The notes: a model not told the origin generated them from the letters alone. Shown: positions 5,795 through 63,355, counted from the first letter of the stretch. The stretch is 64,000 bases of DNA from Mucilaginibacter sp. (GCF_041660805.1 NZ_JBAZVP010000020.1:3681-67680), one strand, 5' to 3'. Numbers and translations: made by a program.

Positions 5795-5862
5795 ATACAG
5801 GATAACAAAATTGCTTTACCAAAAGTAATAATGATTTTTAATGTGTTGCAAAATAAGCAATA

Positions 5863-6806: not shown

Positions 6807-6859
6807 TTGATTGTTTTTGATTAATAATGATTATTTTTGATCAAAATAAAACTATTAAT

Positions 6860-39915: not shown

Positions 39916-41247
39916 ATGCCTGATCAAATACCACTAAATACCTTTAACTTATTAACGCCGGATAATATAAATATAGCTGTTATAGGCTTAGGTTATGTTG
40001 GTTTACCGCTTGCCGTTGAATTCTCAAAAAAATATTCGGTAGTTGGTTTTGATAAAAAACAGGCTCGGATTGATGAGTTAAACGCCGGCAACGACCGTAC
40101 GCTGGAGATTGATAGCAATGAATTAAAGAAAGTTAAGCGTGCTTCGGGCAGCAATAATGGATTGCTTTTTACATCGGATGTAGGTGATATAAAAAATTGC
40201 AATATCTATATCATATCGGTACCAACACCTACCGACAAGCATAACCGCCCCGACATGCATATGCTTAAAAATGCCTGTGAACTAATAGGATCGGTCATTT
40301 CTAAAGGCGATATTTTCATATTGGAATCAACCGTATACCCGGGTGTGACAGAAGAAATTTGTGTGCCGATCATTGAAAAGATATCAGGTCTTAAACTAAA
40401 CGAAGGTTTTTATGCAGGTTATTCTCCGGAACGGATAAACCCGGGAGATAAGGTGCATACGTTAACCAATATTTTAAAAGTAACATCGGGTTCAACACCT
40501 GAGGCGGCCAATTTTATAAATAACCTGTACGGCACTATTATTACAGCCGGCACGCATAAGGCGCCAACTATAAAAGTAGCCGAGGCCTGTAAGGTTATTG
40601 AGAACTCCCAGCGCGATATTAATATTGCATTTGTTAATGAGCTTTCAAAAATTTTTAACCTGATGCAAATTGATACCCAGGCAGTTTTAAAAGCGGCAGG
40701 TACTAAATGGAACTTTTTAAATTTTAAACCCGGTTTAGTAGGAGGGCACTGTACGGGCGTTGATCCGTACTATCTGGCACAGCGGGCGCAAGAAGTAGGA
40801 TATCACCCGGAAATTATTTTAGCAGGCCGAAGACTTAATGATGGCATGGGTACTTATGTTGCCATGGAAGTTATAAGGCTTATGATTAAGAAGGATATTG
40901 TTGTAAAAAATGCCAATGTTTTAGTATTGGGCTTTACTTTTAAGGAGAACTGCCCGGATGTACGTAACACACGGGTAATTGATATTATTAAAGTTTTAAA
41001 TGATTTTGAAATTATTTGTGACATTTATGATCCATGGGCAAACCCTAAAGAGGTAGCTGATGAGTACCAAATAAATACCATCAATATGTTTGAAAATGTA
41101 AGGGCTAATTATGATGCAATTATATTAGCTGTTGCCCATGATGAGTTTTTGAAAATAGACATCAGCAGTCTAAAAAAGGCACATTCATCAGTAATTTACG
41201 ATATAAAAGCGGTGCTGGATGAGGGTATAATAGATGGGCGTTTATAA
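39916..41247 (+). CDS. UDP-N-acetyl-hexosamine 6-dehydrogenase (TviB/WbpO/CapL type nucleotide-sugar dehydrogenase)
   Basis: 443 aa. NAD motif VIGLGYVGLPLA, catalytic GLVGGHC, and overall TviB-like length and order. Confidence 0.88.
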   Translation: MPDQIPLNTFNLLTPDNINIAVIGLGYVGLPLAVEFSKKYSVVGFDKKQARIDELNAGNDRTLEIDSNELKKVKRASGSNNGLLFTSDVGDIKNCNIYIISVPTPTDKHNRPDMHMLKNACELIGSVISKGDIFILESTVYPGVTEEICVPIIEKISGLKLNEGFYAGYSPERINPGDKVHTLTNILKVTSGSTPEAANFINNLYGTIITAGTHKAPTIKVAEACKVIENSQRDINIAFVNELSKIFNLMQIDTQAVLKAAGTKWNFLNFKPGLVGGHCTGVDPYYLAQRAQEVGYHPEIILAGRRLNDGMGTYVAMEVIRLMIKKDIVVKNANVLVLGFTFKENCPDVRNTRVIDIIKVLNDFEIICDIYDPWANPKEVADEYQINTINMFENVRANYDAIILAVAHDEFLKIDISSLKKAHSSVIYDIKAVLDEGIIDGRL

Positions 41248-41367: not shown

Positions 41368-42411
41368 ATGCAAGTTTTTACTTTAAAGGTCATAAATCTG
41401 CGTTTTGAAACAAGGGATACACTCACGGTTTCATTCAAGCAACCAGCTTTAAAGAAAATTAAATATCTGGCTGGGCAGTACCTGACCCTTATTTTTCGTA
41501 TCAACGGCCGAAGATATATCCGGCCATACTCGTTTTCATCAGCCCCTGGTGTTGATGCCAATCTTGAGGTTACCATTAAAAGAGTACCGGGAGGAGTTGT
41601 TTCAAACCATATTATAGATCAATTAAAGGTTGATGATCTGGTTGAAGTTATGGAACCTATGGGAGATTTTGTTTTAACTGAAAACAATCTTTTACCTAAA
41701 ACACATATTGTATTATGGGGAGCAGGTAGTGGTATAACTCCGCTCATGTCAATTGCAAAATACGCATTACATAAAAATTTGGCAAATCATGTTACACTTG
41801 TGTTTGGCAACCGTAATGAAGAAGACGTAATTTTTAGCAGTAAAATTGTAGAACTAAAAGAACAATATAAAAACCAATTTTCGGCCATACATTTTTTAAC
41901 ACAAGCTGTAATAGCAAGTAACAATCCTTACGTTGTTCAAGGTCGTATAAACCCGGATAATGTTTTGTCTGTGATGCAGAGCGAGGGTGATATTTATGAC
42001 ACGATACATTATATTTGTGGCCCTGCAGGCTTAAAAGAATCTGTGAAAGCAACATTATCAGAATTGAATATTGCGCCTGAAAAAATATATTCAGAAGATT
42101 TTGAAATATTGCGTGATCCTGCAGAATTTGAAAATATAGTTACAAGGATAGTAACGATTAAAAAGGATGGTTTACGTTTACCCGTTGAGGTAGTTAAAGG
42201 TAAAAGTATTCTTGAGGCTGGTTTAGATGCCATGATTGATATGTCGTACTCTTGCCAAACCGGGAATTGCCTGGTTTGTAAAGGACGTTTAATAAATGGG
42301 CAGGTGAAAATGATAGGTATTGAAAAATTACCTGAAGGTTTGCAGCAACAGGAATGCTTGTTATGCAGCAGTTTCCCGCTTACAGATAATGTTGAAATAG
42401 AAGTTGATTAG
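41368..42411 (+). CDS. FNR-type flavin reductase with C-terminal plant-type 2Fe-2S ferredoxin domain (candidate E3 / CDP-6-deoxy-delta-3,4-glucoseen reductase role)
   Basis: 347 aa. FAD motif RPYSFSS (RxYS), NAD(P) motif GAGSGITP and C-terminal C-x4-C-x2-C...C (SCQTGNCLVCKG...ECLLC). It is the first gene of the CDP-sugar cassette. Confidence 0.75.
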   Translation: MQVFTLKVINLRFETRDTLTVSFKQPALKKIKYLAGQYLTLIFRINGRRYIRPYSFSSAPGVDANLEVTIKRVPGGVVSNHIIDQLKVDDLVEVMEPMGDFVLTENNLLPKTHIVLWGAGSGITPLMSIAKYALHKNLANHVTLVFGNRNEEDVIFSSKIVELKEQYKNQFSAIHFLTQAVIASNNPYVVQGRINPDNVLSVMQSEGDIYDTIHYICGPAGLKESVKATLSELNIAPEKIYSEDFEILRDPAEFENIVTRIVTIKKDGLRLPVEVVKGKSILEAGLDAMIDMSYSCQTGNCLVCKGRLINGQVKMIGIEKLPEGLQQQECLLCSSFPLTDNVEIEVD

Positions 42412-42419
42412 ATTAGAAT

Positions 42420-43193
42420 ATGAAAGTTGTACTATTAGCGGGCGGATTAGGTACCAGACTATCTGAAGAAACTACACTGAAACCAAAACCAATGGTTGAA
42501 ATTGGTGGTATGCCCATATTATGGCATATAATGAAAATTTATTCAACATACGGTTATAATGACTTTATTGTTTGCCTGGGCTATAAGGGGTATGTTATAA
42601 AGGAATACTTTGCCAACTATTTTCTGCATAAATCTGATATAACAATTGATTTAAAAGACAACTCCATAAAGGTGCATGATTCACAGGCCGAACCATGGAC
42701 AATTACCCTTGTAGATACAGGGAATGAGTCCATGACGGGCGGTAGGATAAAAAGAATTAAGCCACACGTAAACAACGAGCCCTTTATGCTAACATACGGT
42801 GACGGCGTTAGTGATGTAAACATTGCCGAACTGGTTAAATACCATAAAAGCCATGGTAAGATGTGTACAGTAACTTCGGTACAGCCATCCGGCCGTTTTG
42901 GTGCATTAGATTTAAATGAAGATATGTCTGTGAAATCATTTTTAGAGAAACCTAAGGGTGATGGTTCATGGATAAATGGAGGTTATTTTGTATGCCAGCC
43001 AGAAATTTTTGATTACATAAAAGACGGTGACAGTACCGTTTGGGAACAAAAACCTATGGAAGAAATAGCCAGTGACGGCCAGATGAAAGCTTACAAGCAC
43101 GATGGTTTTTGGCGCCCAATGGATACGCTGAAAGACAAGCACGATTTAAATGAAATGTGGGATGTTGATAAAGCTTCCTGGAAAATCTGGTAA
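42420..43193 (+). CDS. rfbF: glucose-1-phosphate cytidylyltransferase
   Basis: 257 aa. The N-terminus LLAGGLGTRLSEETTLKPKPMVEIGGMPILWHIMKIY...GYKGYVIKEYFANYFLH is nearly identical in pattern to enterobacterial RfbF/DdhA. Confidence 0.92.
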   Translation: MKVVLLAGGLGTRLSEETTLKPKPMVEIGGMPILWHIMKIYSTYGYNDFIVCLGYKGYVIKEYFANYFLHKSDITIDLKDNSIKVHDSQAEPWTITLVDTGNESMTGGRIKRIKPHVNNEPFMLTYGDGVSDVNIAELVKYHKSHGKMCTVTSVQPSGRFGALDLNEDMSVKSFLEKPKGDGSWINGGYFVCQPEIFDYIKDGDSTVWEQKPMEEIASDGQMKAYKHDGFWRPMDTLKDKHDLNEMWDVDKASWKIW

Positions 43194-43196
43194 TCT

Positions 43197-44291
43197 ATGA
43201 TACAGGATTTAAAAGATGTTTATAAAGGAAAAAAAGTTTTTTTAACCGGGCACACTGGTTTTAAAGGCTCGTGGCTGGTTAAAATATTTAGTTTACTTGG
43301 CGCCGAGGTTAAAGGTTATGCCTTAGCACCAGAGAATGAACTGAACCTTTATAGCATTATAAAAGGTGATGAACTTTGTGACTCGGTAATTGCTGACCTG
43401 CGCGATAGAGCGAAACTAAATGAAGCTGTAGGCAGCTTTCAGCCCGATTTTATATTTCATTTAGCCGCACAGCCCCTGGTAAGGCTTTCTTATCAGATCC
43501 CGTCCGAAACGTTTGAGGTAAACGCTATTGGTACTGCAAATGTGCTTGATGCCATGAGGCTGTTAAACAAGCCTTGTAATGCTGTTTTAATTACTACAGA
43601 CAAAGTTTACCACAATAACGAATGGATTTACCCATATCGTGAAACAGACCGCCTTGGTGGCTACGATCCATATAGTGCGAGTAAGGCCTGTACAGAACTG
43701 GTTATTGACTCGTACCGTAATTCCTTTTTTAATACCAATACTTATAGCACTCATCAAAAAGCAATAGCCGTAGGGCGTGCAGGCAATGTAATAGGTGGTG
43801 GCGATTGGTCTAAAGACAGGTTGATACCCGATATTGTAAAGGCTTTGGCAGCTAATGAAGATATAGAGGTAAGAAATCCAAATTCAATAAGGCCATGGCA
43901 GCACGTACTGGAGCCCTTATTTGGTTATTTATTATTAGGAGCAAAGTTAGCCGGTGATCCAATACATTATTCACAAGCCTATAATTTTGGCCCCGATGCA
44001 AATGACACTTTACCGGTAAAAAAAATGGTTGAACTGGCTATTGCAAAATGGGGTAGTGGCCAGTATTTTACCAATATAAAGGATACCCAGCTGCATGAAG
44101 CCGGTTTATTGAAACTGGATATAAGTAAGGCTATTGATGAATTAAAATGGAAACCTTTATTTAACGCTGAAAAAGCAGTTGAATACACAATTAAATGGTA
44201 CAAGATCTTTTATTCCAATAAAGATATGGCCAGTGAATACACCAAAGAACAGATACTTGCATTTTTAAATAATTTTAATGACAACCAATAA
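43197..44291 (+). CDS. rfbG: CDP-glucose 4,6-dehydratase
   Basis: 364 aa. KKVFLTGHTGFKGSWL, YSASK (YxxxK) and a RfbG/DdhB-like C-terminus. Confidence 0.92.
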   Translation: MIQDLKDVYKGKKVFLTGHTGFKGSWLVKIFSLLGAEVKGYALAPENELNLYSIIKGDELCDSVIADLRDRAKLNEAVGSFQPDFIFHLAAQPLVRLSYQIPSETFEVNAIGTANVLDAMRLLNKPCNAVLITTDKVYHNNEWIYPYRETDRLGGYDPYSASKACTELVIDSYRNSFFNTNTYSTHQKAIAVGRAGNVIGGGDWSKDRLIPDIVKALAANEDIEVRNPNSIRPWQHVLEPLFGYLLLGAKLAGDPIHYSQAYNFGPDANDTLPVKKMVELAIAKWGSGQYFTNIKDTQLHEAGLLKLDISKAIDELKWKPLFNAEKAVEYTIKWYKIFYSNKDMASEYTKEQILAFLNNFNDNQ

Positions 44292-45333
44292 AATTGTTTT
44301 AGAAGATCTGGAGGCAATACGTAATTCAACTATTGATTGGCAGCGCTTTGCTGGTAAAACGGTATTAATTACAGGGGCCAATGGTTTTTTGCCGGCATAT
44401 ATGGTAGAAACCTTACTTTATATTAATGCAAAAATAGGTATTGATGTTAAAGTGATTGGGTTGGTGCGGAGCATAGAAAGAGCTAAAAAGCGGTTTATTG
44501 AGTATGCCGGAGATAAAAATCTTACATTTATTGAGCAGGATGTAAGTAAGCCTGTTAAAATTGATGAAAATCAAACAATAGATTTTATAGTACACGCTGC
44601 AAGCCAGGCAAGCCCTAAGTACTATGGCACTGACCCGGTTGGTACCTTAAGCGCTAACGTGCTTGGTACGCTAAACCTAATGACCCTTGCGCGCGAAAAA
44701 AATATAGAATCGTTCTTGTACTTTAGTTCGGGAGAAGTTTATGGGCAAATTGATAACGAACATAACCCTGTTAAGGAAGACTATTATGGATACCTTGATC
44801 CTATGCAGGTACGTTCCTGCTATGGTGAGAGTAAAAGGATGGGAGAGAACATTTGCGTAAGTTATTATAAGCAGTACAACATAAGCGCTAAAGTTGTACG
44901 CCCCTTCCATACCTATGGGCCTGGCATGCAATTGGATGATGGCCGGGTATACGCCGATTTTGTTGCAGATATTTTGAATGAACGCAACATTGAAATGAAA
45001 AGTGACGGATCTGCAAAACGGTCATTTTGTTATTTAAAAGATGCTACTATTGGTTTTTTTATAGTTTTATTGAACGGTACCCCGGGCGAAGCTTATAATG
45101 TAGGCAACCCTAATGAAGAACATAGTATTTTAGAACTTGCAGAAGCCATAATTAAATTAGGCAATGCTAGTTTAAAGGTTATAAAAGTTGATATTACTGC
45201 TGATAACCAGTATTTGAAAAGCCCTTTATTACGTAATACCCCTAATATTGATAAACTGCTGGTTTTAGGATGGAGCCCGCAAACCGATATTATGACCGGG
45301 TTTGAAAGGACCATTAAAAGTTACCTTGTATAA
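44278..45333 (+). CDS. extended SDR (NAD-dependent epimerase/dehydratase/reductase) acting on a nucleotide sugar
   Basis: 351 aa. GANGFLPAY glycine motif and YGESK catalytic YxxxK. Overlaps the rfbG stop by 14 nt. Confidence 0.8.
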   Translation: MTTNKIVLEDLEAIRNSTIDWQRFAGKTVLITGANGFLPAYMVETLLYINAKIGIDVKVIGLVRSIERAKKRFIEYAGDKNLTFIEQDVSKPVKIDENQTIDFIVHAASQASPKYYGTDPVGTLSANVLGTLNLMTLAREKNIESFLYFSSGEVYGQIDNEHNPVKEDYYGYLDPMQVRSCYGESKRMGENICVSYYKQYNISAKVVRPFHTYGPGMQLDDGRVYADFVADILNERNIEMKSDGSAKRSFCYLKDATIGFFIVLLNGTPGEAYNVGNPNEEHSILELAEAIIKLGNASLKVIKVDITADNQYLKSPLLRNTPNIDKLLVLGWSPQTDIMTGFERTIKSYLV

Positions 45334-45352
45334 ATAAGATTTAATACTACCA

Positions 45353-47170
45353 ATGAAAATAAGTGATGCTATAGCCGACTTTTTAGAAGAAAAAGAGATA
45401 AGGCATGTTTTTGGAATTATTGGCGCAGGCAATGCACATATATTCGATTCGATATACAGTAAAGGTTATACTGAAATAGTTTGTGTGCATCATGAACAGG
45501 CTGCCTGTATGGCTATGCAAACTTATTATCGTATTACCGGTAAAGTTACTGCAGTGCTTTTAACAACAGGTGCAGGTTCTACAAATGGTGTAACCGGTGT
45601 AGTTAGCGCCTGGGCCGATTCAATACCCGGCCTGATCATTTCAGGAAATGAGAACTCTAAATTTATCGATCTGCATAAAGATTTGCGTATGTGGGGTGTT
45701 CAGGGATATGACAGTTCGCTAATGGTTGATAAAGTGACCAAATATGCAGGCCGCGTTTTAGATCCTAAAGATATTACCAGGGAATTAAACAAAGCTTACG
45801 ATATTACTACAGAAGGCCGCCCGGGCCCGGTTTGGCTGGATATTCCTATGAATATCCAATCGTCGGTAATTGATGAAACTGCTATTTTGCCCTATGAAAA
45901 ACCAGAAGCTATTAATAATACTAATGACACTTTAAGCAATCAGGTTGGTGAAATTGTAGCTGATCTTAAAAAAGCTAAGCGCCCGCTGTTATGGCTTGGC
46001 CATGGTATTAGGCTGGCCAATGCAGTTGATTTGTTAGAACCTCTGTTAGATCAGTTAAAAATACCTGCACTGGTAACCTGGGCTGGTATAGATATGGTAG
46101 ATTCATACCACCCGCTTGTATATGGCAGGGCGGGCACGTATGGGCAAAGGTGCGCTAATTTTGTACTGCAAAATTGTGATTACTTATTATGCATAGGCAC
46201 ACGCATGGCTATACCACAAATTGGTTATGAAATAAACGAGCTTGCACGCGATGCACAAATTGCAGTGGTAGATATTGATGAACACGAACTGTTAAAATAC
46301 AAAGCAAGGTACAAGCATAGTGTAGCCGCCGATGCAAATTTGTTTTTAACCGAATTGTTGGAACAAACAACAAATTTTAAAACAGATATAAGTCAATGGG
46401 TAACTATATGCGATAAATACAGAACAGAATATCCATGGGTAAATTCATCTGACCATCCGGATAAAGAAGGTTTTATTAATTCATATCCATTTATGGATAA
46501 ATTAAATGCCCATTTAAAGGATGATCAAATTATAGTTACTGATATGGGTACTGCTTTACTGAGTGGCCATCAGGCATTAAAATTAAAAAAAGGCCAGCGC
46601 TTAATGACATCTACAGGTTTAGGTGAAATGGGATATGGCCTGCCGGCTGCTTTAGGTGCATCATTTGCTACAAATAAAGGTGAAGTAATTTGTCTCAATT
46701 GCGATGGTGGTATGATGATGAACCTGCAGGAACTACAAACTATGGCACATCATCAGTTACCAATTAAGCTGTTTATATTTAATAACGATGGTTATTTAAT
46801 GATAAAGCATACGCAGAAAGCATTGTTTAAGGGCAGGGCTGCCGGTACAGACCAAAAATCGGGAGTAAGCTGCCCGGATTTTACTGCTTTGGCAGAGGCG
46901 TTTAAATTTAAAAGTTTCCAGATAAGAACCTGGGAAGATTTTGATGCATATATCCCTCAGATACAGGCCCATAATGGCCCTGTAATATGCGAAGTATTTA
47001 TGCATCCGCAGCAAACATTTGTGCCAAAATTATCTTTAGCAATTCAAAAAGATGGAACATTAATATCTCCGCCACTTGAAGACCTTTCACCATTTATCTC
47101 AAGAAAAGAACTTAAAGCAAATATGCTGAGTGGTTTACACTCAAAATCACTTGAAATTGAGGTGCAATAA
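45353..47170 (+). CDS. thiamine-diphosphate enzyme of the acetolactate-synthase large-subunit fold (YerE-like sugar C-branching candidate)
   Basis: 605 aa with three-domain AHAS-like architecture. The N-terminal Pyr domain carries the catalytic Glu (VCVHHEQAA). The C-terminal ThDP motif is CDGGMMMNLQEL...NNDGY. Confidence 0.8.
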   Translation: MKISDAIADFLEEKEIRHVFGIIGAGNAHIFDSIYSKGYTEIVCVHHEQAACMAMQTYYRITGKVTAVLLTTGAGSTNGVTGVVSAWADSIPGLIISGNENSKFIDLHKDLRMWGVQGYDSSLMVDKVTKYAGRVLDPKDITRELNKAYDITTEGRPGPVWLDIPMNIQSSVIDETAILPYEKPEAINNTNDTLSNQVGEIVADLKKAKRPLLWLGHGIRLANAVDLLEPLLDQLKIPALVTWAGIDMVDSYHPLVYGRAGTYGQRCANFVLQNCDYLLCIGTRMAIPQIGYEINELARDAQIAVVDIDEHELLKYKARYKHSVAADANLFLTELLEQTTNFKTDISQWVTICDKYRTEYPWVNSSDHPDKEGFINSYPFMDKLNAHLKDDQIIVTDMGTALLSGHQALKLKKGQRLMTSTGLGEMGYGLPAALGASFATNKGEVICLNCDGGMMMNLQELQTMAHHQLPIKLFIFNNDGYLMIKHTQKALFKGRAAGTDQKSGVSCPDFTALAEAFKFKSFQIRTWEDFDAYIPQIQAHNGPVICEVFMHPQQTFVPKLSLAIQKDGTLISPPLEDLSPFISRKELKANMLSGLHSKSLEIEVQ

Positions 47171-47179
47171 TTATTCGAA

Positions 47180-48064
47180 ATGAGTAAATTAAAAGTAGCC
47201 ATATTAGGCAGTGGAAACATCGGGACAGACCTGCTGATTAAAATTCAACGTTCTGAACATCTTGATTGTGTACTTTTTATAGGCAGGAATCTTTCTTCTC
47301 CAGGTATGGCAAAAGCTATCAGCCTGGGCGTAAAGGTATCCGACCAAAGTATAAATGCTATTTTAAAAGATCCTGATTGTTGCGATTTAATATTTGACGC
47401 TACATCGGCTAAAGATGCACAGCACCATTGGAACATACTTGAAAAGCTGGGAAAAATAGTAGTAGACATGACCCCTGCAAAAATAGGCCGCCTTTGTATC
47501 CCGGCTGTAAACCTGAACGATGCCATCGCGCTGCGAAATGTAAATATGGTAACATGCGGCGGGCAGGCATCTATACCCATCGCTTACCTTATTGGCCAAA
47601 CACACCCCGAAGTGGAATATATAGAGGTGGTATCCAGCATTGCATCGCGCAGTGCCGGGCCGGCTACACGGTTAAATTTGGATGAGTACATTGAAACTAC
47701 AGAAGAAGGCATACGCATGTTCTCTGGCGCTAAGAAGGCCAAGGCTATTTTAAATTTGAACCCGGCTAACCCCTGCATTGACATGCAGACTACTATTTTT
47801 GCAAAAGTATCCAATCCAAATATCGAGGCATTGACACTTGCTGTTGAAAACATGATAAAAAGCATTAATACATACGTACCAGGTTACCAGTTGCTGGTAG
47901 CACCAATATATGAAAATGGCCGTATAGTAGTAATGGTAAAAGCACAGGGGCTAGGCGATTATCTGCCTAAATATGCAGGCAACCTGGATATTATCAATTG
48001 CGCGGCTATTGCTGTGGCAGAGGAGTATGCAAAAAAACAACAGGAAGGTAACTTAATAAACTAA
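47180..48064 (+). CDS. acetaldehyde dehydrogenase (CoA-acylating), DmpF/MhpF/BphJ family
   Basis: 294 aa. LKVAILGSGNIGTDLLIK, the catalytic-Cys motif NMVTCGGQA and YLPKYAGNLDI are colinear with DmpF as I recall it. Confidence 0.88.
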   Translation: MSKLKVAILGSGNIGTDLLIKIQRSEHLDCVLFIGRNLSSPGMAKAISLGVKVSDQSINAILKDPDCCDLIFDATSAKDAQHHWNILEKLGKIVVDMTPAKIGRLCIPAVNLNDAIALRNVNMVTCGGQASIPIAYLIGQTHPEVEYIEVVSSIASRSAGPATRLNLDEYIETTEEGIRMFSGAKKAKAILNLNPANPCIDMQTTIFAKVSNPNIEALTLAVENMIKSINTYVPGYQLLVAPIYENGRIVVMVKAQGLGDYLPKYAGNLDIINCAAIAVAEEYAKKQQEGNLIN

Positions 48065-48066
48065 TA

Positions 48067-49008
48067 ATGAAATTGACTGAGTTGAAAGAGCTATTTTCAA
48101 ACGGAGAGATTAGCAAAATGGATTATATTGATAATATGCATAGCCTGCATTTATTACTGTTTGACTATACAGAATTCTTAAAAAAATCTGACATTTCTAA
48201 AATAACTATTCAGGACGATTTATTAATAATGACCTCCCGTGAAACTGATTATCATAAAGGTGGGTTGAGTTTTTATTGTGACTTATTGGATAAAAGGAAT
48301 ACGCCTATAGAGGTTCTGAATTTTGGCACCTATGAACCGGAAGAATCGGCTATGCTATACCGCATTATTGAAGAAAATTACACCGTATTTGATATAGGCG
48401 GCAATTTAGGCTGGTATACTAATCATATCGCTCCTTTATTAACAGAAGGAGAAATATATGCTTTTGAGCCCATACCAGAAACTTTTGAAAAGCTCGTTAA
48501 AAATGTTCAGCTAAATGGCTTTGATAACATTACATTAGAAAACTTCGCTTTTTCAGATAAGCAGGATAAAATTAAGTTTTTCTATTCTCCGGCTATGCCC
48601 GGTGCATCTTCGTCACAGAATATAACAGGTGGCAATAATATGCAAGAATTGGAATGTATTACAAATACGGTTGATAATTATGTCGCAGATAATAAAATCA
48701 GCAAATTAGATTTTATTAAATGTGATGTTGAGGGAGCAGAGTTTATGGTGTTTAAAGGCGCTAAAAATACTATTCAAAAATACCATCCTATTGTTTTTTC
48801 AGAAATGCTGCGAAAATGGTCGGCTAAATTTAACTATCATCCCAACGATATAATTAACTTTTTCCGTGAGTTAGGTTATGAATGTTATACTGCCAATCAA
48901 AAAGGTTTGGTTGCTTTTGATATTGTGGATGAAAACACAATAGAAACAAATTTTTTCTTTTTACATACTGATATTCATAAAGAAAAAATTAAACAATTGT
49001 TAGCATAA
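48067..49008 (+). CDS. FkbM family SAM-dependent methyltransferase
   Basis: 313 aa. SAM motif VFDIGGNLGWYT, plus YAFEP and IKCDVEGAE typical of FkbM. Inserted between the DmpF-like and DmpG-like genes. Confidence 0.8.
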   Translation: MKLTELKELFSNGEISKMDYIDNMHSLHLLLFDYTEFLKKSDISKITIQDDLLIMTSRETDYHKGGLSFYCDLLDKRNTPIEVLNFGTYEPEESAMLYRIIEENYTVFDIGGNLGWYTNHIAPLLTEGEIYAFEPIPETFEKLVKNVQLNGFDNITLENFAFSDKQDKIKFFYSPAMPGASSSQNITGGNNMQELECITNTVDNYVADNKISKLDFIKCDVEGAEFMVFKGAKNTIQKYHPIVFSEMLRKWSAKFNYHPNDIINFFRELGYECYTANQKGLVAFDIVDENTIETNFFFLHTDIHKEKIKQLLA

Positions 49009-49053
49009 TACTGAAAATATCAAATGATAATCAGTTAATGAACCGTGCATTAA

Positions 49054-50061
49054 ATGAAACATATACTTATAAGTGACCCTACATTAAGAGATGGTAACCA
49101 CGCCGTTTCGCATCAGTTATCAGCTAAACAAATAGCTGTATACTGCGAAGCTGCGAACAAAGCGGGGGTACCAATTGTTGAAGTTGGGCATGGCAATGGT
49201 TTGGGGGCATCTTCATTACAGGTAGGCGAAAGCCTGGAAACTGATGAGGTATTGCTAACTACCGCACGCAAATATCTTACTGAAAGCAAGTTAGGTATAC
49301 ATGTAATACCCGGTTTTGCTACCATTCAGCGCGATTTAAAAAAAGCAATTGAATGGGGGGTTGATGTTATACGTGTAGCATCGCACTGTACAGAAGCAGA
49401 TATTACGCAGAGGCATATTGGTTACTCGCGCGAAAAGGGTAAAGAAACCTATGGGGTATTGATGATGACCCACATGGCGTCGCCTGAACTTTTAGTAGAA
49501 GAGGCTCATAAAATGGAGCTTTACGGCGCCGAAGGGATCATTATAATGGATTCTGCAGGTGCATATTTACCACTGGATGTTACAGAACGCATAACCGCTT
49601 TGGTTGATGGACTGGCTATTCCGGTTGGTTTTCATGGTCACAATAATTTGGGCATGGGCATAGCTAATAGCATTGCTGCTATTCAGGCTGGCGCTACTAT
49701 GTTGGATGGTACCGCACGGGGCTTTGGCGCAGGTGCTGGTAACGCTCAGTTAGAAGTATTGATAGCCGTTTTAAACAAAATGGGTTATACAACGGGAGTA
49801 GACCTGTATAAAATCCTGGATGCGGCAGATATTGCCGAGAAAGAAATTATGCCGTTGGTACCGGTAATTAAATCGGAAAGTGTAGTGAGTGGATTAGCAG
49901 GCGTGTTCTCGGGCTTTTCAAAACATGTTAACCGGATATCTAAAGAATATAATGTTGACCAGCGCGATGTTTACTTTGAACTGGGTAAGCGTAAGGTAAT
50001 AGCAGGGCAGGAAGATCTGATAATAGAGGTTGTTTTAGATATTGTTAAACGCCAGAATTAA
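49054..50061 (+). CDS. 4-hydroxy-2-oxovalerate aldolase family (DmpG/MhpE/BphI class II pyruvate aldolase)
   Basis: 335 aa. ISDPTLRDGNHA (Asp and His equivalents of DmpG D18/H21), HGHNN (H200/H202), GAGAGNA and GQEDLI are colinear with DmpG. Confidence 0.88.
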   Translation: MKHILISDPTLRDGNHAVSHQLSAKQIAVYCEAANKAGVPIVEVGHGNGLGASSLQVGESLETDEVLLTTARKYLTESKLGIHVIPGFATIQRDLKKAIEWGVDVIRVASHCTEADITQRHIGYSREKGKETYGVLMMTHMASPELLVEEAHKMELYGAEGIIIMDSAGAYLPLDVTERITALVDGLAIPVGFHGHNNLGMGIANSIAAIQAGATMLDGTARGFGAGAGNAQLEVLIAVLNKMGYTTGVDLYKILDAADIAEKEIMPLVPVIKSESVVSGLAGVFSGFSKHVNRISKEYNVDQRDVYFELGKRKVIAGQEDLIIEVVLDIVKRQN

Positions 50062-50062
50062 A

Positions 50063-51115
50063 ATGAAGAAAGAAGCTATAAACGATATAAAGGCCGATTG
50101 CAGGCAATCTTTAGCCGGATACACCAGTTCGCTGGAATGCCTGCGCGATCAAAGCATTTTAGTTACAGGTGGCACCGGCTTTATTGGTAAATGGATAACT
50201 GAAGTGGTTTCTGTATTAAACGATGAAGAAGGCTTTAATATAAAGCTCTATCTTTTGGCCCGCGATATGGAAGATTACCGCGCAGAGGTGCCGCATTTGG
50301 CCGCTTTAAAGTACGTTACATTAATAGAACAGGATATTAGAAATGTAAGTGTATTACCGGAGGATGTACGCTGGATAATCCATGCTGCAGGTTCGCCTGA
50401 TAACCGCACCCATGTAAGCAATCCGCTTAAAACCATCGAAACTTTTTACAGGGGTACACAAGCCTTGTTAGATGCCTGCCTGCGTTTACAGGGGCTAAAC
50501 AAATTTGTGCATTTAAGTTCAAATACAGTATATGGCCATCCTTTAAAATCGTCAGAATTTGGTATTAAAGAAAACGAGATAGGGGTGTCTGACTGTAATA
50601 CTGTAAATGCAACATACAGCGAAGCCAAACGTATGGCCGAGACGATATGTGCGGTATACCGCAATCAGCAAAAGCTACCAATAGTTATAACTCGTCCGTT
50701 CTCATTCATTGGCCCTTACCAGGATCTTGAAAAACCGTGGGCTATTAATAATTTCATCAGAGACAGTATTTTAAACGGCCCTATCAGAATATTAGGTAAC
50801 GAGAATACTGTACGCAGCTATATGTATGGCAGTGATATTGCCTGTTGGTTACTAATGGCGCTTGCCAAAGGTAAAACCGCGGCCACATATAACATAGGCG
50901 GAGATCAGCCTATATCATTGAAAGACCTTACCGGTAAAATCACCTCCAATTTTTCTAATAAAATTGATGTGCTTTTTAAATATTCCAAAGCTTATCCGGC
51001 GCAATCATCTATATCCATACCAGATACTTCGGCTATAAAAAACGACCTTGGCGTTAAGCAACAAATCAGCTTTGAATCGGCGCTAAAAAGAACAATTGAC
51101 TGGTATAAAAAATAA
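50063..51115 (+). CDS. extended SDR (NAD-dependent reductase/epimerase; YerF-like ketoreductase candidate)
   Basis: About 350 aa from the ATG at 50063. The ORF-track start at 50042 overlaps the aldolase gene. GGTGFIGKW and YSEAK (YxxxK) are present. Confidence 0.8.
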   Translation: MKKEAINDIKADCRQSLAGYTSSLECLRDQSILVTGGTGFIGKWITEVVSVLNDEEGFNIKLYLLARDMEDYRAEVPHLAALKYVTLIEQDIRNVSVLPEDVRWIIHAAGSPDNRTHVSNPLKTIETFYRGTQALLDACLRLQGLNKFVHLSSNTVYGHPLKSSEFGIKENEIGVSDCNTVNATYSEAKRMAETICAVYRNQQKLPIVITRPFSFIGPYQDLEKPWAINNFIRDSILNGPIRILGNENTVRSYMYGSDIACWLLMALAKGKTAATYNIGGDQPISLKDLTGKITSNFSNKIDVLFKYSKAYPAQSSISIPDTSAIKNDLGVKQQISFESALKRTIDWYKK

Positions 51116-51156
51116 GGCAGGAACTAAACCTGTGTTACATAAACTAAAATATTACA

Positions 51157-52464
51157 ATGCAACCTTTTAAAAATATCGACTCAAATATTAAAGATCAGTT
51201 ATCTGCTATCATTAAAAAGAACACCACTAAGGAAATCATTGCGGGTAAAAATTATATACCGGTAACCGGTAAAATAGTGGATGAAGAAGATATTTTATAT
51301 GGAGTTGATGCCGCATTAGATGGCTGGTTGACCGCTGGCCGTTTTGCTAATTCTTTTGAATACGATTTTGCCAAATACTTTGGAGCACCCAAAGCATTAC
51401 TGGTGAACTCTGGCTCATCTGCCAATTTGGTAGCCTTTTACGCACTTACTTCTACAAAATTGGGCGACCGTGCAGTAAAACCGGGTGATGAGGTGATTAC
51501 GGTTGCCGCGGGTTTCCCAACTACTGTAAACCCAATGATCCAGTTTGGTGCTATCCCGGTGTTTGTTGACGTTGATATTGCAACACATAACGTAAAAGCC
51601 GAAGATATTGAGGCGGCTGTATCACCCAAAACAAAAGCAATAATGATTGCGCACTCCCTGGGCAACCCATTTAACCTGGATGAGGTGATGCGTGTAGCAA
51701 AAAAATATAACCTTTGGGTAGTTGAGGATGACTGTGATTCGTTAGGTGCAACTTACAGAGGGCAGAAAACCGGTACGTTTGGTGACATATCTACTTTCTC
51801 TTTCTATCCGGCCCATCACATTACTATGGGCGAGGGCGGTGCCGTTTTAATAAATAATCCTGAGCTGGCCAAAGTTGCCGAAAGTTTTAGGGATTGGGGC
51901 CGCGATTGTTATTGCGAACCCGGAAAGGATAATACCTGCGGATGCCGTTTTTCTCAACAATTAGGATCATTGCCTTATGGGTACGATCATAAATATACTT
52001 ACTCGCATATTGGGTTTAACTTAAAAGTTACTGATATGCAGGCGGCATTTGGTGTATCACAATTAAAGAAAATTGATTATTTCGTACAGCGTAGAAGGGA
52101 AAATTTCAAGGCCCTTTATGAACGTATGAAAGAATTGGAAGAGATATTTATCCTACCTGAGCCAACTTTGCATAGCGATCCATCATGGTTTGGCTTTCTT
52201 TTAACCTTACGGGAAGGAGATGCCGCTGACAGGCATATGTTAGTGCAACATTTAGAAGAAAAGATGATTGGTACCCGCTTATTGTTTGGGGGTAACTTAT
52301 TACGTCAGCCTGCTTATGCCAACATAAATCATCGTACAATTGGTAACCTTGAAAATACTGATATTATTATGAATCAGTCTTTTTGGCTGGGGGTTTGGCC
52401 AGGGTTAAATGAGAGCCACTACGATTATATGTTGGACGTTATTAAGGCTTATATTAATAATTAA
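51157..52464 (+). CDS. rfbH: CDP-6-deoxy-L-threo-D-glycero-4-hexulose-3-dehydrase (E1; PMP/2Fe-2S DegT-family enzyme)
   Basis: 435 aa with a DegT/DnrJ/EryC1 fold. His replaces the Schiff-base Lys (SFYPAHHIT). Cys spacing is exactly C-X57-C-X1-C-X7-C (DDC...[12 protein letters not shown]). Confidence 0.92.
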
Positions 52465-52706: not shown

Positions 52707-55226
52707 ATGAGACTACTGTACAAAGCCAATTTTAAATATAAATATTTCCTTTTATCGGTTTTATGTTGTTTTGCAATGTTGCTTGTAAGGCCGGCATTCG
52801 CCCAAACTATTCCTTCTAACCTGTCTAATGTAAATGTTAACGAGTTATCTGATGCTCAGATAAGGCAAATAATGCAGCAGGCGCAAACAAATGGCTTAAC
52901 CGATGACCAGTTAATGCAAACTTTAGAAGATCGTGGCCTGTCATCAGAACAATCAAAAATACTGCAAAACCGTATTAACGGTATTAAAAAGGCTAATGGT
53001 GCAACCAATGATAAACCCTTAAAATCAAAGCAGGAGGACAATGAATTTCAATCACAAAGCAGGGGGTTGAATTATAAACCTGATACCCTTATTGATACAC
53101 AAAGAACCCAAAAGATAGTGAACATGTTTCAACCAAAAATATTTGGTGCTGATATGTTTAAAAATACTAATTTAAAGTTTGAGCCTAATCTAAAAATAGC
53201 CACACCTGTAAATTACATTGTGGGCCCCGAAGATCAATTAAATATCAGCGTTTATGGTAACTCTTTAGTAAACTGGAAGCTTGATGTATCGCCGGAAGGT
53301 AATGTTAATATACCCGGCGCTGGTATATTGAATGTTGCAGGTAAAACTATTGAACAGGCTACCGCATCAATAAAAAGTAAATTAATTGCAAATAATTATG
53401 CAATTGGCAGGGGTACAGACGTGCAGGTCAGTTTGGGTAATATCCGGAGTATAAAAGTAATAATGGTAGGAGAGCTTGTAAAGCCTGGTACTTATACACT
53501 ACCATCATTGGCAACGGCATTTAATGCTTTGTCTTCTGCAGGCGGGCCAAATGATATAGGTTCATACAGAAAAATAGAAATAATAAGAAATAATAGGGTT
53601 ATAAGAACTTTAGATATTTATGATTTCCTGGTTAAGGGCAGTCAGAAAGATAATATTTCATTACAGGATCAGGATGTAATACGTGTGCCATCTTACCGTA
53701 TCCGTGTTGATTTAAGAGGCGAAGTAAAAACGCCCGCACTATTTGAGGTTTTACCCGGCGAAAATTTAGATGATGTTATCAGATTTTCCGGAGGTTTTTC
53801 TGACCAGGCGTACACTGCACGCATAAAGGTTACACAAGTGAGTGATCAGCAACGCCGTATCACCGATGTTTTTGAAAACGACTATAAAAACTACATCCCG
53901 CTGCGCGGTGATAAATATGTAGTTGACAGGATACTAGACAGATATACTAATCGTGTAACTATTTTAGGCGCAGTTTTCAGACCCGGTGAATTTGAATTGC
54001 AAAACGGATTAACTGTATCACAATTAATTAAAAACGCAGGTGGTTTAAAAGAGGATGCCTTTACGGGGCGGGGAAGTATTATCAGATTAAATACTGATAA
54101 TTCAACACAGCAGCTTTCATTTAATGTAAATGATGTGTTAAATAAGGCTTCGGCAGATATACGTTTGCAAAGAGAAGATAGTGTAACCATATCATCAAAA
54201 TTTGATCTGCGTAATCAATACAAGATCACTATTAAAGGTGAAGTAAGAAAGCCCGGTGATTTTAATTATGCCGATAGCATGAAAGTTGCCGATCTTATAA
54301 TCAGGGCCGGAGGCTTTACAGAAGGAGCAAGTGCAAAACGTATTGAAGTATCGCGCAGAGTATTTGACAGTGATCCAAGAGCGATAAACACTAAAGTTGC
54401 ACAAGTTTATACCGTTAATGTTAGTGCCGATCTTAAAACGGAGGATACAAATTTTTCATTGGAGCCTTATGATATAGTTTCTGTTTACAGTTTACCGGGA
54501 TATGAAACACAAAAAACGGTTAAAGTTGAGGGTGAGGTGATATATCCGGGTTGGTATACGATACAAAAGAAAAATGAAAAAATTTCTGATGTGATTGCAC
54601 GTGCGGGTGGCTTAACACAATCGGCAGATGTTGAAGGCGGTAGCCTTAAACGTGATAATGCAGCAGTATTAGGTATAGATAAAACTAAAATTGATACAAA
54701 CGCACTAAACAAAGAGCGTACTGACCGTTTAAGAAGGCTTCAACGAACTTATAAAGATTCAACAACTACTGATACAACCCAATTAAGAAATAATTATGTA
54801 GGTATTGATCTTAAAAATATATTACTTAAACCCGGTGCAAATCAAGATCTTATTTTAGAGAATGGAGATGTCTTAAGGGTACCTAAACAACAGCAAACAG
54901 TTAGAGTGAACGGCGAAGTGCTTTACCCAAGTGCAGTAGTTTATACTAAAGGGAAAAGTTTTAGAGGTTTTGTTCTGAATGCCGGTGGGTTCTCACCCAA
55001 TGCTTTAAAAAGCGGAGCATATGTTGTTTATCCTAATGGAACGGTTAAGGGTACAAGAAAATTCTTATTTTTTAATAGTCATCCCAGTGTTAAACCCGGC
55101 AGTGAAATTTATGTTCCTAAGAAGCCTGAAAAGAAAGGAAACACTACTCAGGAAATTTTAGCTTTTACAACAGGTTTAGCTTCATTAGGAGCGATTATAT
55201 TAGGAATATTAAACTTATCAAAGTAA
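52707..55226 (+). CDS. wza: outer-membrane polysaccharide export protein (Wza-like, multiple SLBB domains)
   Basis: 839 aa with a signal peptide. Poly_export motif YIVGPEDQLNISVYGN, then several repeats of the SLBB pattern (G.V..PG.Y.......L.D.I..AGG), and a C-terminal hydrophobic helix. Confidence 0.85.
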   Translation: MRLLYKANFKYKYFLLSVLCCFAMLLVRPAFAQTIPSNLSNVNVNELSDAQIRQIMQQAQTNGLTDDQLMQTLEDRGLSSEQSKILQNRINGIKKANGATNDKPLKSKQEDNEFQSQSRGLNYKPDTLIDTQRTQKIVNMFQPKIFGADMFKNTNLKFEPNLKIATPVNYIVGPEDQLNISVYGNSLVNWKLDVSPEGNVNIPGAGILNVAGKTIEQATASIKSKLIANNYAIGRGTDVQVSLGNIRSIKVIMVGELVKPGTYTLPSLATAFNALSSAGGPNDIGSYRKIEIIRNNRVIRTLDIYDFLVKGSQKDNISLQDQDVIRVPSYRIRVDLRGEVKTPALFEVLPGENLDDVIRFSGGFSDQAYTARIKVTQVSDQQRRITDVFENDYKNYIPLRGDKYVVDRILDRYTNRVTILGAVFRPGEFELQNGLTVSQLIKNAGGLKEDAFTGRGSIIRLNTDNSTQQLSFNVNDVLNKASADIRLQREDSVTISSKFDLRNQYKITIKGEVRKPGDFNYADSMKVADLIIRAGGFTEGASAKRIEVSRRVFDSDPRAINTKVAQVYTVNVSADLKTEDTNFSLEPYDIVSVYSLPGYETQKTVKVEGEVIYPGWYTIQKKNEKISDVIARAGGLTQSADVEGGSLKRDNAAVLGIDKTKIDTNALNKERTDRLRRLQRTYKDSTTTDTTQLRNNYVGIDLKNILLKPGANQDLILENGDVLRVPKQQQTVRVNGEVLYPSAVVYTKGKSFRGFVLNAGGFSPNALKSGAYVVYPNGTVKGTRKFLFFNSHPSVKPGSEIYVPKKPEKKGNTTQEILAFTTGLASLGAIILGILNLSK

Positions 55227-55234
55227 GTTAACTA

Positions 55235-56317
55235 ATGAATAATCAAGAAAATATTAAGACAGATTTTGATGGTATTACTTTAAGAGATTGGCTTTATAAA
55301 TTACGCAATCTTTGGATTTATCTGTGTACTAAATGGCTTTTACTTTTTACTGCATGTATTTTAGGAGGCATTTTAGGCTTTACCTATGCTTTGTTTGAGA
55401 AGCCGATTTACAAAGCAGAACTTAGTTTTGCACTTGAAGATGAGAAATCGTCAGGCGGAGGAATTGGTGCTGCCTTAGGTTTAGCTAGCCAATTTGGAAT
55501 TGATTTGGGTGGAAGTGGGGGTGGGGCGTTTTCAGGTGATAACTTGTTAATGCTAATGAAATCTCGTTCAATGGTGGAGAGTGCATTATTAAGCCCTGTG
55601 TACGTTAATAAAAAGCAACAAACATTATTAGAGCTTTATATATCATATAATAATCTTCGGAAAGGTTGGAAAAATAATGTCCAATTGAAAAACATCCAAT
55701 TTTTATTACGCACCGAACGTTCCAAATTTACCATACAACAAGACAGTGTTATGGGCAGCATTTACAATAAAATAGTTTCATCAAATTTATCTGTAGATAA
55801 GTTTGACAAAAAATTAACTATAATTACGGTTGCTGTTAAGTCTGAGAATGAGTTATTTTCAAAACAATTCACAGAGGCCTTAGTGAAGACAGTATCCAAC
55901 TTTTATATAGAAACTAAAACAAAAAAATCTACACAGAATGTTCTAATACTACAACGTCAAACAGACTCGGTAAGGCGTGAGTTGAATGGAGCAATTAATG
56001 GTGTTGCAACATCAGTAGATGTTAACCCAAATGCAAACCCAACATTACAGATTTTAAGGGTTCCATCCCAACGACATCAAGTTGATGTTCAGGCAAACCA
56101 AGCTATTTTAACTGAATTAGTTAAAAATCTTGAGATTTCTAAAGTTTCTTTGAGACGTGAAACACCTTTAATACAAATAATTGATAAACCAATATTGCCG
56201 CTTGAAAAAAATAGACTTGGAATAGTTAAGGGAATTATTTTGGGTGGGTTCTTATTTGGATTTTTATTTACATTGTATCTGGTCATTTCTAAAGCAATCA
56301 AAGATGTTATGATTTAA
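55235..56317 (+). CDS. Wzz-like polysaccharide chain-length determinant (no kinase domain)
   Basis: 360 aa. N-terminal TM followed by PIYKAELSF, a long periplasmic helical region and a C-terminal TM (GGFLFGFLFTLYLVI). Confidence 0.75.
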   Translation: MNNQENIKTDFDGITLRDWLYKLRNLWIYLCTKWLLLFTACILGGILGFTYALFEKPIYKAELSFALEDEKSSGGGIGAALGLASQFGIDLGGSGGGAFSGDNLLMLMKSRSMVESALLSPVYVNKKQQTLLELYISYNNLRKGWKNNVQLKNIQFLLRTERSKFTIQQDSVMGSIYNKIVSSNLSVDKFDKKLTIITVAVKSENELFSKQFTEALVKTVSNFYIETKTKKSTQNVLILQRQTDSVRRELNGAINGVATSVDVNPNANPTLQILRVPSQRHQVDVQANQAILTELVKNLEISKVSLRRETPLIQIIDKPILPLEKNRLGIVKGIILGGFLFGFLFTLYLVISKAIKDVMI

Positions 56318-56631
56318 ATACAATTAAATGTAGTAGGTCGTTTATAAATGAAACAATCGTTAATAGTCGTGTTTTTGTTCTACTTTTTACTTTGTTAACT
56401 TAGCTACAGTGGGCATGTAAAAGCATTATTAAAATCCTATTAAAATAGCACCGCGTTGGTTGTATTTATGATGTATTCACGCCTAATGCCCAATTCTTAG
56501 TTAAATCTTACTAAGGTCTTCACCCTGAATGCAATGTCAGGAAAAAATAATGGACAGCTATATAATTGGTTGATTATTTGAATAAATTAATAAATGTACA
56601 ACAAGAAGAATCAACAAAACAACATTTGAAT

Positions 56632-57420: not shown

Positions 57421-57474
57421 TATTGAATTAGATTTTGAACGAATTAGTTATCAAAAGTTAAGTATATACATTCG

Positions 57475-59693: not shown

Positions 59694-59814
59694 TTAGATT
59701 ACAATCTCTTCATTATAATAGCTTGAAAAATCATTTTTTTATAAAAAATATAGCCATTATACACGTAGATGCCGCTCTTCTAGCATGTTTTATTGAACAT
59801 AGCTAAACATAAAT

Positions 59815-60891: not shown

Positions 60892-60898
60892 CACATTC

Positions 60899-61984: not shown

Positions 61985-61989
61985 ATTCG

Positions 61990-62772: not shown

Positions 62773-62773
62773 T

Positions 62774-63346: not shown

Positions 63347-63355
63347 TTACTTACT

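Follow-up and report, generated by a model that had tools for sequence, protein, structure and literature searches.

An erwiniose-type aldolase and dehydrogenase pair in a Mucilaginibacter polysaccharide locus and its predicted role in making a branched sugar

Erwiniose biosynthesis and the pair in the window

The closest described system to the genes considered here is the putative erwiniose cluster of Pectobacterium atrosepticum SCRI1043, where ErwE and ErwF are encoded beside ErwJ and ErwI (Steitz et al. 2022, PMC9306805). ErwE is a YerE-like enzyme dependent on thiamine diphosphate (ThDP), ErwF is a reductase, ErwJ is an acetaldehyde dehydrogenase and ErwI is a BphI-like pyruvate aldolase (PMC9306805). 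Erwiniose itself is the C4-branched homologue of yersiniose (PMC9306805). In the proposed route acetyl-coenzyme A (acetyl-CoA) is converted to acetaldehyde and then to (R)-4-hydroxy-2-oxopentanoate, a ThDP enzyme adds this to cytidine diphosphate (CDP)-4-keto-3,6-dideoxy-D-glucose, and a reduction follows (PMC9306805). ErwE accepts 4-hydroxy-2-oxopentanoate with a preference for the (4R) form and rejects pyruvate (PMC9306805). Since ErwE refuses pyruvate, the aldol step must precede the ThDP transfer. We consider here a similar pair of enzymes encoded at positions 47180-50061 of a 64,000-nucleotide stretch from Mucilaginibacter sp. (NZ_JBAZVP010000020.1:3681-67680), which we call the window. 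We argue that this pair quite likely supplies (4R)-4-hydroxy-2-oxopentanoate for a C4 branch on a CDP-3,6-dideoxyhexose, which would then be reduced, O-methylated and built into a Wzx/Wzy-dependent polysaccharide.

According to a review, an in silico survey by Krug et al. in 2024 covered more than 200 YerE-like clusters. Lanza et al. in 2024 reportedly described JanthE of Janthinobacterium sp. HH01 (PDB 8rph, 8rpi and 8rpj). A sequence-only reading of the window had claimed that its chemistry has no described precedent and could be new. That claim has to be given up, because the same scheme has been proposed and partly tested for erwiniose (Steitz et al. 2022, PMC9306805). The pathway type is already published, and the window holds a Mucilaginibacter version of it with an extra methyltransferase.

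All three genes of the region lie on the plus strand. The first (47180..48064) encodes an ErwJ-like CoA-acylating acetaldehyde dehydrogenase of the DmpF/BphJ family, 294 amino acids (aa) long. It scores 382.6 bits against TIGR03215, acetaldehyde dehydrogenase (acetylating), where the cutoff is 282, and it has the AcetDehyd-dimer domain. The third (49054..50061) encodes a 335-aa ErwI-like class II pyruvate aldolase of the DmpG/BphI family. It scores 390.6 bits against TIGR03217, 4-hydroxy-2-oxovalerate aldolase (cutoff 286), and consists of an HMGL-like domain (PF00682, 142 bits) and a DmpG_comm domain (PF07836, 89 bits). Between them (48067..49008) is the gene for a 313-aa FkbM-family S-adenosylmethionine-dependent methyltransferase, a probable accessory tailoring enzyme, which matches Methyltransf_21 (PF05050, 79.9 bits) and FkbM (TIGR01444, 108.7 bits). 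No solved-structure homologue of this protein was found among the PDB sequences. The sequence-only reading had placed an FkbM gene between a DmpF-like and a DmpG-like gene at these positions, which the open reading frame (ORF) calls, Pfam and NCBIfam bear out. The motifs it quoted are all present in the program translations. The dehydrogenase carries GSGNIGTDL (the Rossmann GxGxxG) and NMVTCGGQA (with the catalytic Cys), and the aldolase carries LRDGNHA, HGHNN, HVIPG and GVFSGF.

Both proteins are closer to the erwiniose enzymes than to the catabolic ones. For the aldolase, identity is 65% to ErwI of P. atrosepticum SCRI1043 and 40-41% to DmpG and HsaF, and for the dehydrogenase it is 63% to a Pectobacterium ErwJ-like protein and 44% to HsaG. 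The ErwI and ErwE sequences were traced through a Pectobacterium versatile locus (L067) and an exact-sequence cluster look-up (WP_011093010, CAG74339). The ThDP protein of L067 falls in the same 90% cluster as WP_011093010 (ErwE), and its aldolase shares a cluster with CAG74339 of SCRI1043, which is ErwI judging by gene order. The best solved-structure match of the dehydrogenase is PDB 7z3s_A (289 bits versus 244 for HsaG), a single-chain deposit of a 298-aa 'acetaldehyde dehydrogenase'.

A genome scan with the window aldolase as the query, taking one genome per species, gave 80 related loci at 64-94% identity. Their hosts are Bacteroidota, Oxalobacteraceae and other Burkholderiales, Pseudomonas, Pectobacterium, Photobacterium, Leptospira, cyanobacteria, Planctomycetota, Omnitrophota, Bdellovibrionia and Terriglobus (Acidobacteriota). 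Co-occurrence was surveyed by tblastn of all window proteins against the 80 loci, 59 of which have full flanks (at least 7 kb upstream and at least 3 kb downstream of the aldolase gene). A DmpF-like gene adjoins the aldolase gene in 79 of the 80 loci, the exception being a contig end, and in every full-flank locus (59/59). A YerE-like ThDP gene is present in 58 of the 59 full-flank loci, and there is one divergent copy. RfbH is found in 54, RfbF in 55 and RfbG in 52 of these 59. The sequence-only reading had called for such a survey, and across phyla the linkage of dmpFG-like, ThDP and rfbH genes proves to be near-universal.

The catalytic residues are conserved as well. An HMMER alignment of the aldolase to DmpG, gapless at these sites, retains Arg17 and His21 (Arg16 and His20 of BphI) together with the metal ligands, an Asp and the H-x-H motif. 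The LRDGNHA residues are kept in 79-80 of the 80 loci and the FHGHNN residues in 75-80. The catalytic Cys motif of the dehydrogenase is kept in 79 of 80, and the remaining locus is cut by a contig end. The DmpG_comm domain is kept and the dehydrogenase and aldolase genes abut in 72 of 79 loci. These are indirect hints that the two enzymes may form a physical complex, with probable channelling of the aldehyde.

We propose the following route. RfbF, RfbG and RfbH with an E3 reductase would make CDP-4-keto-3,6-dideoxy-D-glucose. The ErwJ-like enzyme would turn acetyl-CoA and NAD(P)H into acetaldehyde and hand it to the ErwI-like aldolase, which would add it to a metal-bound pyruvate enolate. The product would be 4-hydroxy-2-oxopentanoate, with the (4R) form predicted. 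A JanthE-type ThDP enzyme would decarboxylate this keto acid and join the 3-hydroxybutanoyl unit to C-4 of the sugar. The first of two extended short-chain dehydrogenase/reductase (SDR) proteins, SDR1, would reduce the C-1' ketone in the role of ErwF or YerF. FkbM would O-methylate a hydroxyl, SDR2 would add a further step, and the CDP-sugar would enter a Wzx/Wzy-type polysaccharide. The sequences themselves establish the identity of the genes, the residue signatures and the genomic coupling, while for the window enzymes the reaction direction, channelling, stereochemistry, reductase assignment and methylation site are inferred along the lines of the published scheme. A biosynthetic direction feeding the ThDP enzyme had been suggested before. 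It is strongly supported by the coupling of the pair to ThDP and rfb genes and by the 65% identity to ErwI, and the published biochemistry of ErwE and JanthE agrees with it. The hydroxyalkyl branch longer than that of yersiniose, suggested at the same time, matches erwiniose in the published scheme (PMC9306805).

The aldolase pocket and the tailoring genes

The aldehyde pocket is where the window aldolase departs from its catabolic relatives. Pocket positions were read from HMMER alignments to solved structures including DmpG (1nvm_A), and BphI numbering is DmpG minus one. The alignment to DmpG is gapless here, with L88-L89-L90 of DmpG replaced by H83-V84-I85 in the window and Y291 replaced by F285. 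In BphI numbering these changes are L87H, L88V, L89I and Y290F. The sequence-only reading had announced three pocket changes and named two sites. Both of these, Tyr291 to Phe and LLLPG to HVIPG, stand up, and neither the Tyr nor the Leu pocket is conserved in the structure-based alignment; the third change was never specified. His occupies the BphI-Leu87 site in 79 of the 80 loci and Phe the Tyr290 site in all 80. ErwI has both residues (IHLIPGF and GVFSGF).

BphI makes and uses only (4S)-4-hydroxy-2-oxopentanoate, and it loses stereocontrol when Tyr290 is changed to Phe or Ser (PMC3962088). The double variants L87N/Y290F and L87W/Y290F use solely the (4R) enantiomer (PMC3962088). It is the (4R) acid that erwiniose requires and that ErwE favours (PMC9306805). 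Given His for Leu87 and Phe for Tyr290, a (4R) product is predicted for the window aldolase, opposite to that of catabolic BphI and DmpG. By this analogy the His87/Phe290 clade would be the natural counterpart of the engineered stereo-inversion of BphI. This reading of the pocket was not found stated in the papers examined, which did not include those of Krug et al. and Lanza et al.

A deeper, exhaustive search with the aldolase over 1.84 billion cluster representatives gave 502 proteins at E <= 1e-30. Among the best 150 of the 502 there are 15 full-length His/Phe proteins (and 5 truncated ones) and 15 with the canonical Leu/Tyr. Another 67 of the best 150 belong to a different family of 650-700 aa with Phe/His. 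To judge from these sequences, the His/Phe state marks a sizeable group that reaches beyond the 80 loci. The large separate family (P0161-P0270) has Tyr at the His20 position as well as Phe/His at 87/290. P0128 (587 aa) and P0122 (419 aa) include, by domain calls made by eye, a His/Phe-type protein with a long methyltransferase-like C-terminal extension and a Phe/Phe protein with a carrier-protein-like tail (DSL motif).

The pocket also bears on the length of the branch. Leu89 of BphI limits aldehyde length (PMC3962088). The corresponding residue is Ile85 in the window and Ile or Met in 79 of the 80 loci, and a bulky residue here is consistent with a short aldehyde. The pair could instead make a longer keto acid, from propionyl-CoA through propanal to 4-hydroxy-2-oxohexanoate, which would give a C5 branch. 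ErwE in vitro converts 76% of 4-hydroxy-2-oxohexanoate and 49% of the pentanoate (PMC9306805), and BphI/BphJ-type enzymes take both C2 and C3 aldehydes (PMC3962088). However, the length-limiting position stays bulky and erwiniose, the sole solved product of this cassette type, has a C4 branch. We therefore consider the longer keto acid unlikely.

Two SDR genes flank this part of the locus, both on the plus strand. SDR1 (44278..45333) is an extended SDR resembling uridine diphosphate (UDP)-glucuronate decarboxylase. Its best solved match is human UXS1 (E 7.5e-50), yet it falls far under the NCBIfam UXS cutoff. ErwF-like genes occur in 27 of the 59 full-flank loci and SDR1-like genes in 16, and the two never occur together. 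Near-identical JanthE orthologues take either module: one locus (L036) has ErwF and another (L056) has SDR1 with FkbM. In the survey loci FkbM is nearly always accompanied by SDR1. We infer that SDR1 is a generic ketoreductase for C-1' of the branch that replaces ErwF or YerF.

Some Bacteroidota cassettes with other donor modules also contain orthologues of both FkbM (53-56%) and SDR1 (59-61%). One has a split transketolase (L081:4156-7945). In three more (L082-L084; L082:1-7939, L084:1-7939) an HpcH-type aldolase, Ldh_2 and HAD proteins go with a ThDP enzyme. In a fifth (L085:1361-7939) the ThDP enzyme is joined by an HpcH-like aldolase, a short-chain dehydrogenase and a DHQ-synthase-like protein. 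These cassettes probably specify further undescribed branched sugars. Several of them adjoin a YfhO-family gene. Because the FkbM and SDR1 orthologues go with differing donor modules, the FkbM substrate should be a feature common to all of these branched sugars. FkbM thus appears to O-methylate a shared hydroxyl and not the free keto acid.

It might be supposed that FkbM acts on the keto acid, for example by O-methylation of its 4-OH before ThDP transfer, as its gene lies between the dmpF-like and dmpG-like genes in the window and in six other Bacteroidota loci. These six are the only such cases among 79 related loci, so the split was rejected as a defining feature of the cassette. The locus of M. 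agri (L006) is arranged like that of the window. Elsewhere FkbM has the SDR1 orthologue as its neighbour, and the two lie upstream of the ThDP gene or else downstream of SDR2. In nine other loci the orthologue is beside SDR1-like genes and not within the pair. It also accompanies SDR1 in the cassettes that obtain their donor through a transketolase or an HpcH-type aldolase. In the nearest relatives, M. pedocola (L001) and M. pankratovii (L007), the pair is 91-94% identical and no FkbM gene lies within 10 kb. Methylation of the keto acid is improbable on this evidence, and we place FkbM after ThDP transfer, as in the route proposed above.

SDR2 (50042..51115, Pfam Epimerase) behaves differently from SDR1. 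It nearly always comes after the aldolase gene, and an SDR2-like gene is present in 54 of the 59 full-flank loci. In Pectobacterium the product of the gene downstream of erwI shares 37% identity with SDR2. None of the five SDR1/FkbM cassettes above, which have no DmpFG-like pair (L081-L085), contains SDR2. SDR2 may therefore be tied to the ErwIJ-type branch as a second reductase or a CDP-sugar epimerase. Three Pseudomonas loci (L076, L077 and L079) have no SDR2-like gene. As listed, the SDR2 ORF begins at a TTG and shares 20 nt with the end of the aldolase gene. The in-frame ATG at 50063, two bases past the aldolase stop codon, is more likely to be the start.

The ThDP enzyme and the surrounding locus

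The gene directly upstream of the pair (45353..47170, plus strand) encodes a 605-aa ThDP carboligase that is YerE-like and belongs to the JanthE subgroup. Its three ThDP domains are PF02776, PF00205 and PF02775, and it matches JanthE (PDB 8rph) with E 7.8e-256. The two are 61.8% identical over their full length and have the NCDGG motif in common. JanthE is YerE-like with a CDG motif, and its accepted donors range from pyruvate through to 4-hydroxy-2-oxovalerate (PMC12188165). By analogy, the window enzyme is expected to catalyse the decarboxylation of 4-hydroxy-2-oxopentanoate and the transfer of the resulting unit to C-4 of a CDP-4-keto-3,6-dideoxyhexose.

JanthE-type enzymes are found in 61 of the 80 loci and ErwE-type enzymes in 16. 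Proteins that are 98.7% (L056:7232-9064), 98.2% (L036:6282-8114) and 96% (L043, ~6300-8105) identical to JanthE are encoded in rfbF-rfbG-rfbH-ThDP-...-erwJ-erwI arrangements. Since these near-JanthE proteins lie in erwJ-erwI cassettes, 4-hydroxy-2-oxopentanoate and CDP-4-keto-3,6-dideoxyhexose are the probable natural substrates of JanthE-type enzymes. In a Pseudomonas sp. P7548 locus (L076:3449-7062), SDR1-FkbM-erwJ-erwI is preceded by two tandem ThDP genes, whose products show 31% and 61% identity to the enzyme of the window.

An HpcH/HpaI-type aldolase gene is present in 14 loci and adjoins the ThDP gene in all of them (L067 at 5539-6315, L005, L021, L025, L027, L031, L035, L051, L052, L055, L061, L062, L065 and L078). 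It is immediately upstream of an ErwE-type ThDP gene in 12 of the 14. The two others, L031 and L078, have a more divergent ThDP gene at a greater distance. Across the 80 loci this aldolase gene never occurs with a JanthE-type gene. The main text of the published erwiniose scheme makes no mention of this second aldolase (PMC9306805).

JanthE is the closest characterised homologue of the window enzyme and it accepts pyruvate, so one might argue for a pyruvate donor and a yersiniose-type acetyl branch. The pair would then have to work at a later stage or in another place, with the aldolase acting, say, on a sugar carbonyl or the acetyl branch. We find this very improbable. The aldolase retains in full the site at which class II pyruvate aldolases bind pyruvate and metal, nearly all loci link the pair to a ThDP gene, ErwE rejects pyruvate, and DmpG-type enzymes are not known to act on nucleotide sugars. 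The sequence-only reading had offered direct action of the aldolase on a sugar carbonyl as an alternative, and this finds no support with the pyruvate and metal residues intact and an ErwE that refuses pyruvate.

The pair passes the NCBIfam equivalog models of the catabolic enzymes, but that it is an ordinary meta-cleavage DmpFG/MhpEF pair in a glycan locus by chance is barely credible when it is 40-41% identical to DmpG/HsaF and 65% to ErwI, the Tyr and Leu are replaced clade-wide, the sugar-gene context is kept in about 80 loci of many phyla, and a Pfam scan of 61 window ORFs turned up no hydratase, extradiol dioxygenase or meta-cleavage hydrolase. The scan covered all listed ORFs of at least 150 aa except 37102-37647, and it agrees with the sequence-only reading that the window has no hydratase, ring-cleavage dioxygenase or hydrolase. 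The catabolic role was therefore rejected, with no pathway partners in the window and a conserved sugar context. The conserved co-occurrence by itself rules out both a chance juxtaposition and a catabolic role.

Several points weigh against the route we favour, in which the pair feeds 4-hydroxy-2-oxopentanoate to the ThDP enzyme. The keto acid used in the ErwE assays was made with HpaI and not with ErwI and ErwJ (PMC9306805). The window ThDP enzyme is just 33% identical to ErwE (WP_011093010). JanthE is promiscuous and takes pyruvate too, and its physiological substrates were stated to be unidentified (PMC12188165). The argument from His87 to a (4R) product leans on substitutions by Asn or Trp and not by His. 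A literature search on known 3,6-dideoxy-4-C sugars found no Mucilaginibacter structure and no methylated erwiniose. The window has no ErwF homologue, and SDR1 could belong to another sugar pathway in a UDP-xylose role, because it resembles UXS and a nucleotide-sugar dehydrogenase gene opens the locus. It must be noted that a plain UDP-xylose synthase is less likely, because SDR1 excludes ErwF and travels with FkbM and with ThDP or transketolase genes.

We can also ask how likely it is that every part of a fuller reading holds at once. In that reading the product would be an O-methylated stereo-variant of erwiniose, a 3,6-dideoxy-4-C-(1,3-dihydroxybutyl)hexose, the aldolases would form a (4R) clade, and the substrates of JanthE would be identified. 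It rests on the JanthE-type carboligase, the UXS-like reductase and the FkbM methyltransferase being the makers of the sugar. We judge the chance of all this being right to be about even.

The remaining genes of the locus fit a polysaccharide region. A co-directional, closely packed string runs from 41368 to 52464 and encodes, in order, an E3-type reductase, RfbF, RfbG, SDR1, the ThDP enzyme, the DmpF-like enzyme, FkbM, the DmpG-like enzyme, SDR2 and RfbH, all on the plus strand. The E3-type NAD(P)H:flavin/2Fe-2S reductase (41368..42411, Pfam) is the predicted partner of RfbH in C-3 deoxygenation. Its domain order is FAD_binding_6, NAD_binding_1 and a C-terminal Fer2, which is PaaE-like. Identity to the Pectobacterium E3, in which Fer2 is N-terminal, is only 25%. 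Orthologues at 48-71% identity hold the same position in Bacteroidota loci, and most non-Bacteroidota loci have no E3 within 10 kb. RfbF, glucose-1-phosphate cytidylyltransferase (42420..43193), scores 429 bits against TIGR02623 (cutoff 300). RfbG, CDP-glucose 4,6-dehydratase (43197..44291), scores 474 bits against TIGR02622 (cutoff 278). RfbH, the E1 enzyme or CDP-6-deoxy-4-keto-hexose 3-dehydrase (51157..52464), scores 699.9 bits against NF011936 (cutoff 423).

The locus opens with a nucleotide-sugar dehydrogenase of the UDP-glucose/guanosine diphosphate-mannose dehydrogenase family by Pfam (39916..41247, plus strand). By tblastn it is missing from all 80 related loci, and it stands outside the branched-sugar cassette. 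Pfam finds only housekeeping genes further upstream in the window (ClpB, IMPDH, peptidases and others). Downstream, 52707..63346 on the plus strand holds the part of this polysaccharide locus that serves export and assembly, according to Pfam and the ORF list. Its genes encode a Wza-like exporter, a Wzz-like protein, a Wzx flippase, an EpsG/Wzy-like polymerase, glycosyltransferases of families GT2 and GT4 and a hexapeptide acyltransferase. The G+C content drops from about 0.38-0.41 over the nucleotide-sugar genes to 0.29-0.33 over the Wzx, Wzy-like and glycosyltransferase genes (56000-64000 of the window). A low-G+C stretch of this kind is typical of a laterally exchanged, serotype-specific region.

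Comparison with known systems

The erwiniose-type cassette is far commoner than the lone studied Pectobacterium case, with 80 loci at no less than 64% identity in at least 10 bacterial lineages. As far as the sequences tell, what is new in the window is the combination of a JanthE-type enzyme, SDR1 for ErwF, FkbM and a rearranged E3 in a cassette of this type. The two-residue signature would rationalise how aldolases of a catabolic (4S) family came to give a (4R) product. If this is true there is a large, widely transferred clade of (4R)-specific biosynthetic aldolases. JanthE is of biocatalytic interest and gains a probable physiological role. Its physiological substrates would be (4R)-4-hydroxy-2-oxopentanoate and CDP-4-keto-3,6-dideoxyglucose. 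The mobile reductase and methyltransferase pair of the Bacteroidota, with its several donor modules, predicts a family of unknown branched surface sugars.

The erwiniose cluster is the nearest system to the window. Both have rfbF, rfbG and rfbH with an E3, a YerE-like ThDP enzyme, an acetaldehyde dehydrogenase and a DmpG-type aldolase. Both have the His/Phe pocket and an SDR2-like gene downstream of the aldolase gene. However, the ThDP enzyme of the window is of another lineage, with CDG instead of GDG. The UXS-like SDR1 stands in place of ErwF and an FkbM methyltransferase is added. The window also has no HpcH-type aldolase gene of the kind that precedes erwE-type genes, its E3 has another domain order and its host is one of the Bacteroidota. 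Under a strict definition an erwiniose cluster has an ErwE-type ThDP enzyme and an ErwF-type reductase, and the window has neither.

JanthE is like the window ThDP enzyme in its unusual CDG motif, and near-identical orthologues have an ErwJ/ErwI-like pair directly downstream. It has been studied as a biocatalyst, and the Oxalobacteraceae clusters tailor their product either with an ErwF-like protein or with SDR1 and FkbM. YerE and YerF make yersiniose A in Yersinia pseudotuberculosis from the same acceptor, by ThDP-dependent C-4 branching and then ketoreduction. Unlike the proposed window route, YerE takes pyruvate directly to give a C2 branch, so no supply by an aldolase and dehydrogenase is needed.

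The catabolic complexes DmpFG, BphIJ, HsaFG and MhpEF resemble the window pair in fold, catalytic residues, communication domain and gene pairing, and probably in aldehyde channelling. They differ in that identity to the window pair is 40-44%, Tyr290 has become Phe and Leu87 His in the window, and the window pair is linked to sugar genes and not to ring-cleavage genes. The physiological direction would be opposite and the predicted product is (4R) instead of (4S). The caryophyllose and gastriose clusters (MMAR_2331/2332 of M. marinum, MygI/MygE of M. gastri) follow the same logic as the window, with an aldolase-made hydroxy-keto acid, a YerE-like ThDP enzyme and a reductase. Their aldolase is of the HpcH/citrate-lyase type, they have no acylating dehydrogenase and their branches are longer and polyhydroxylated.

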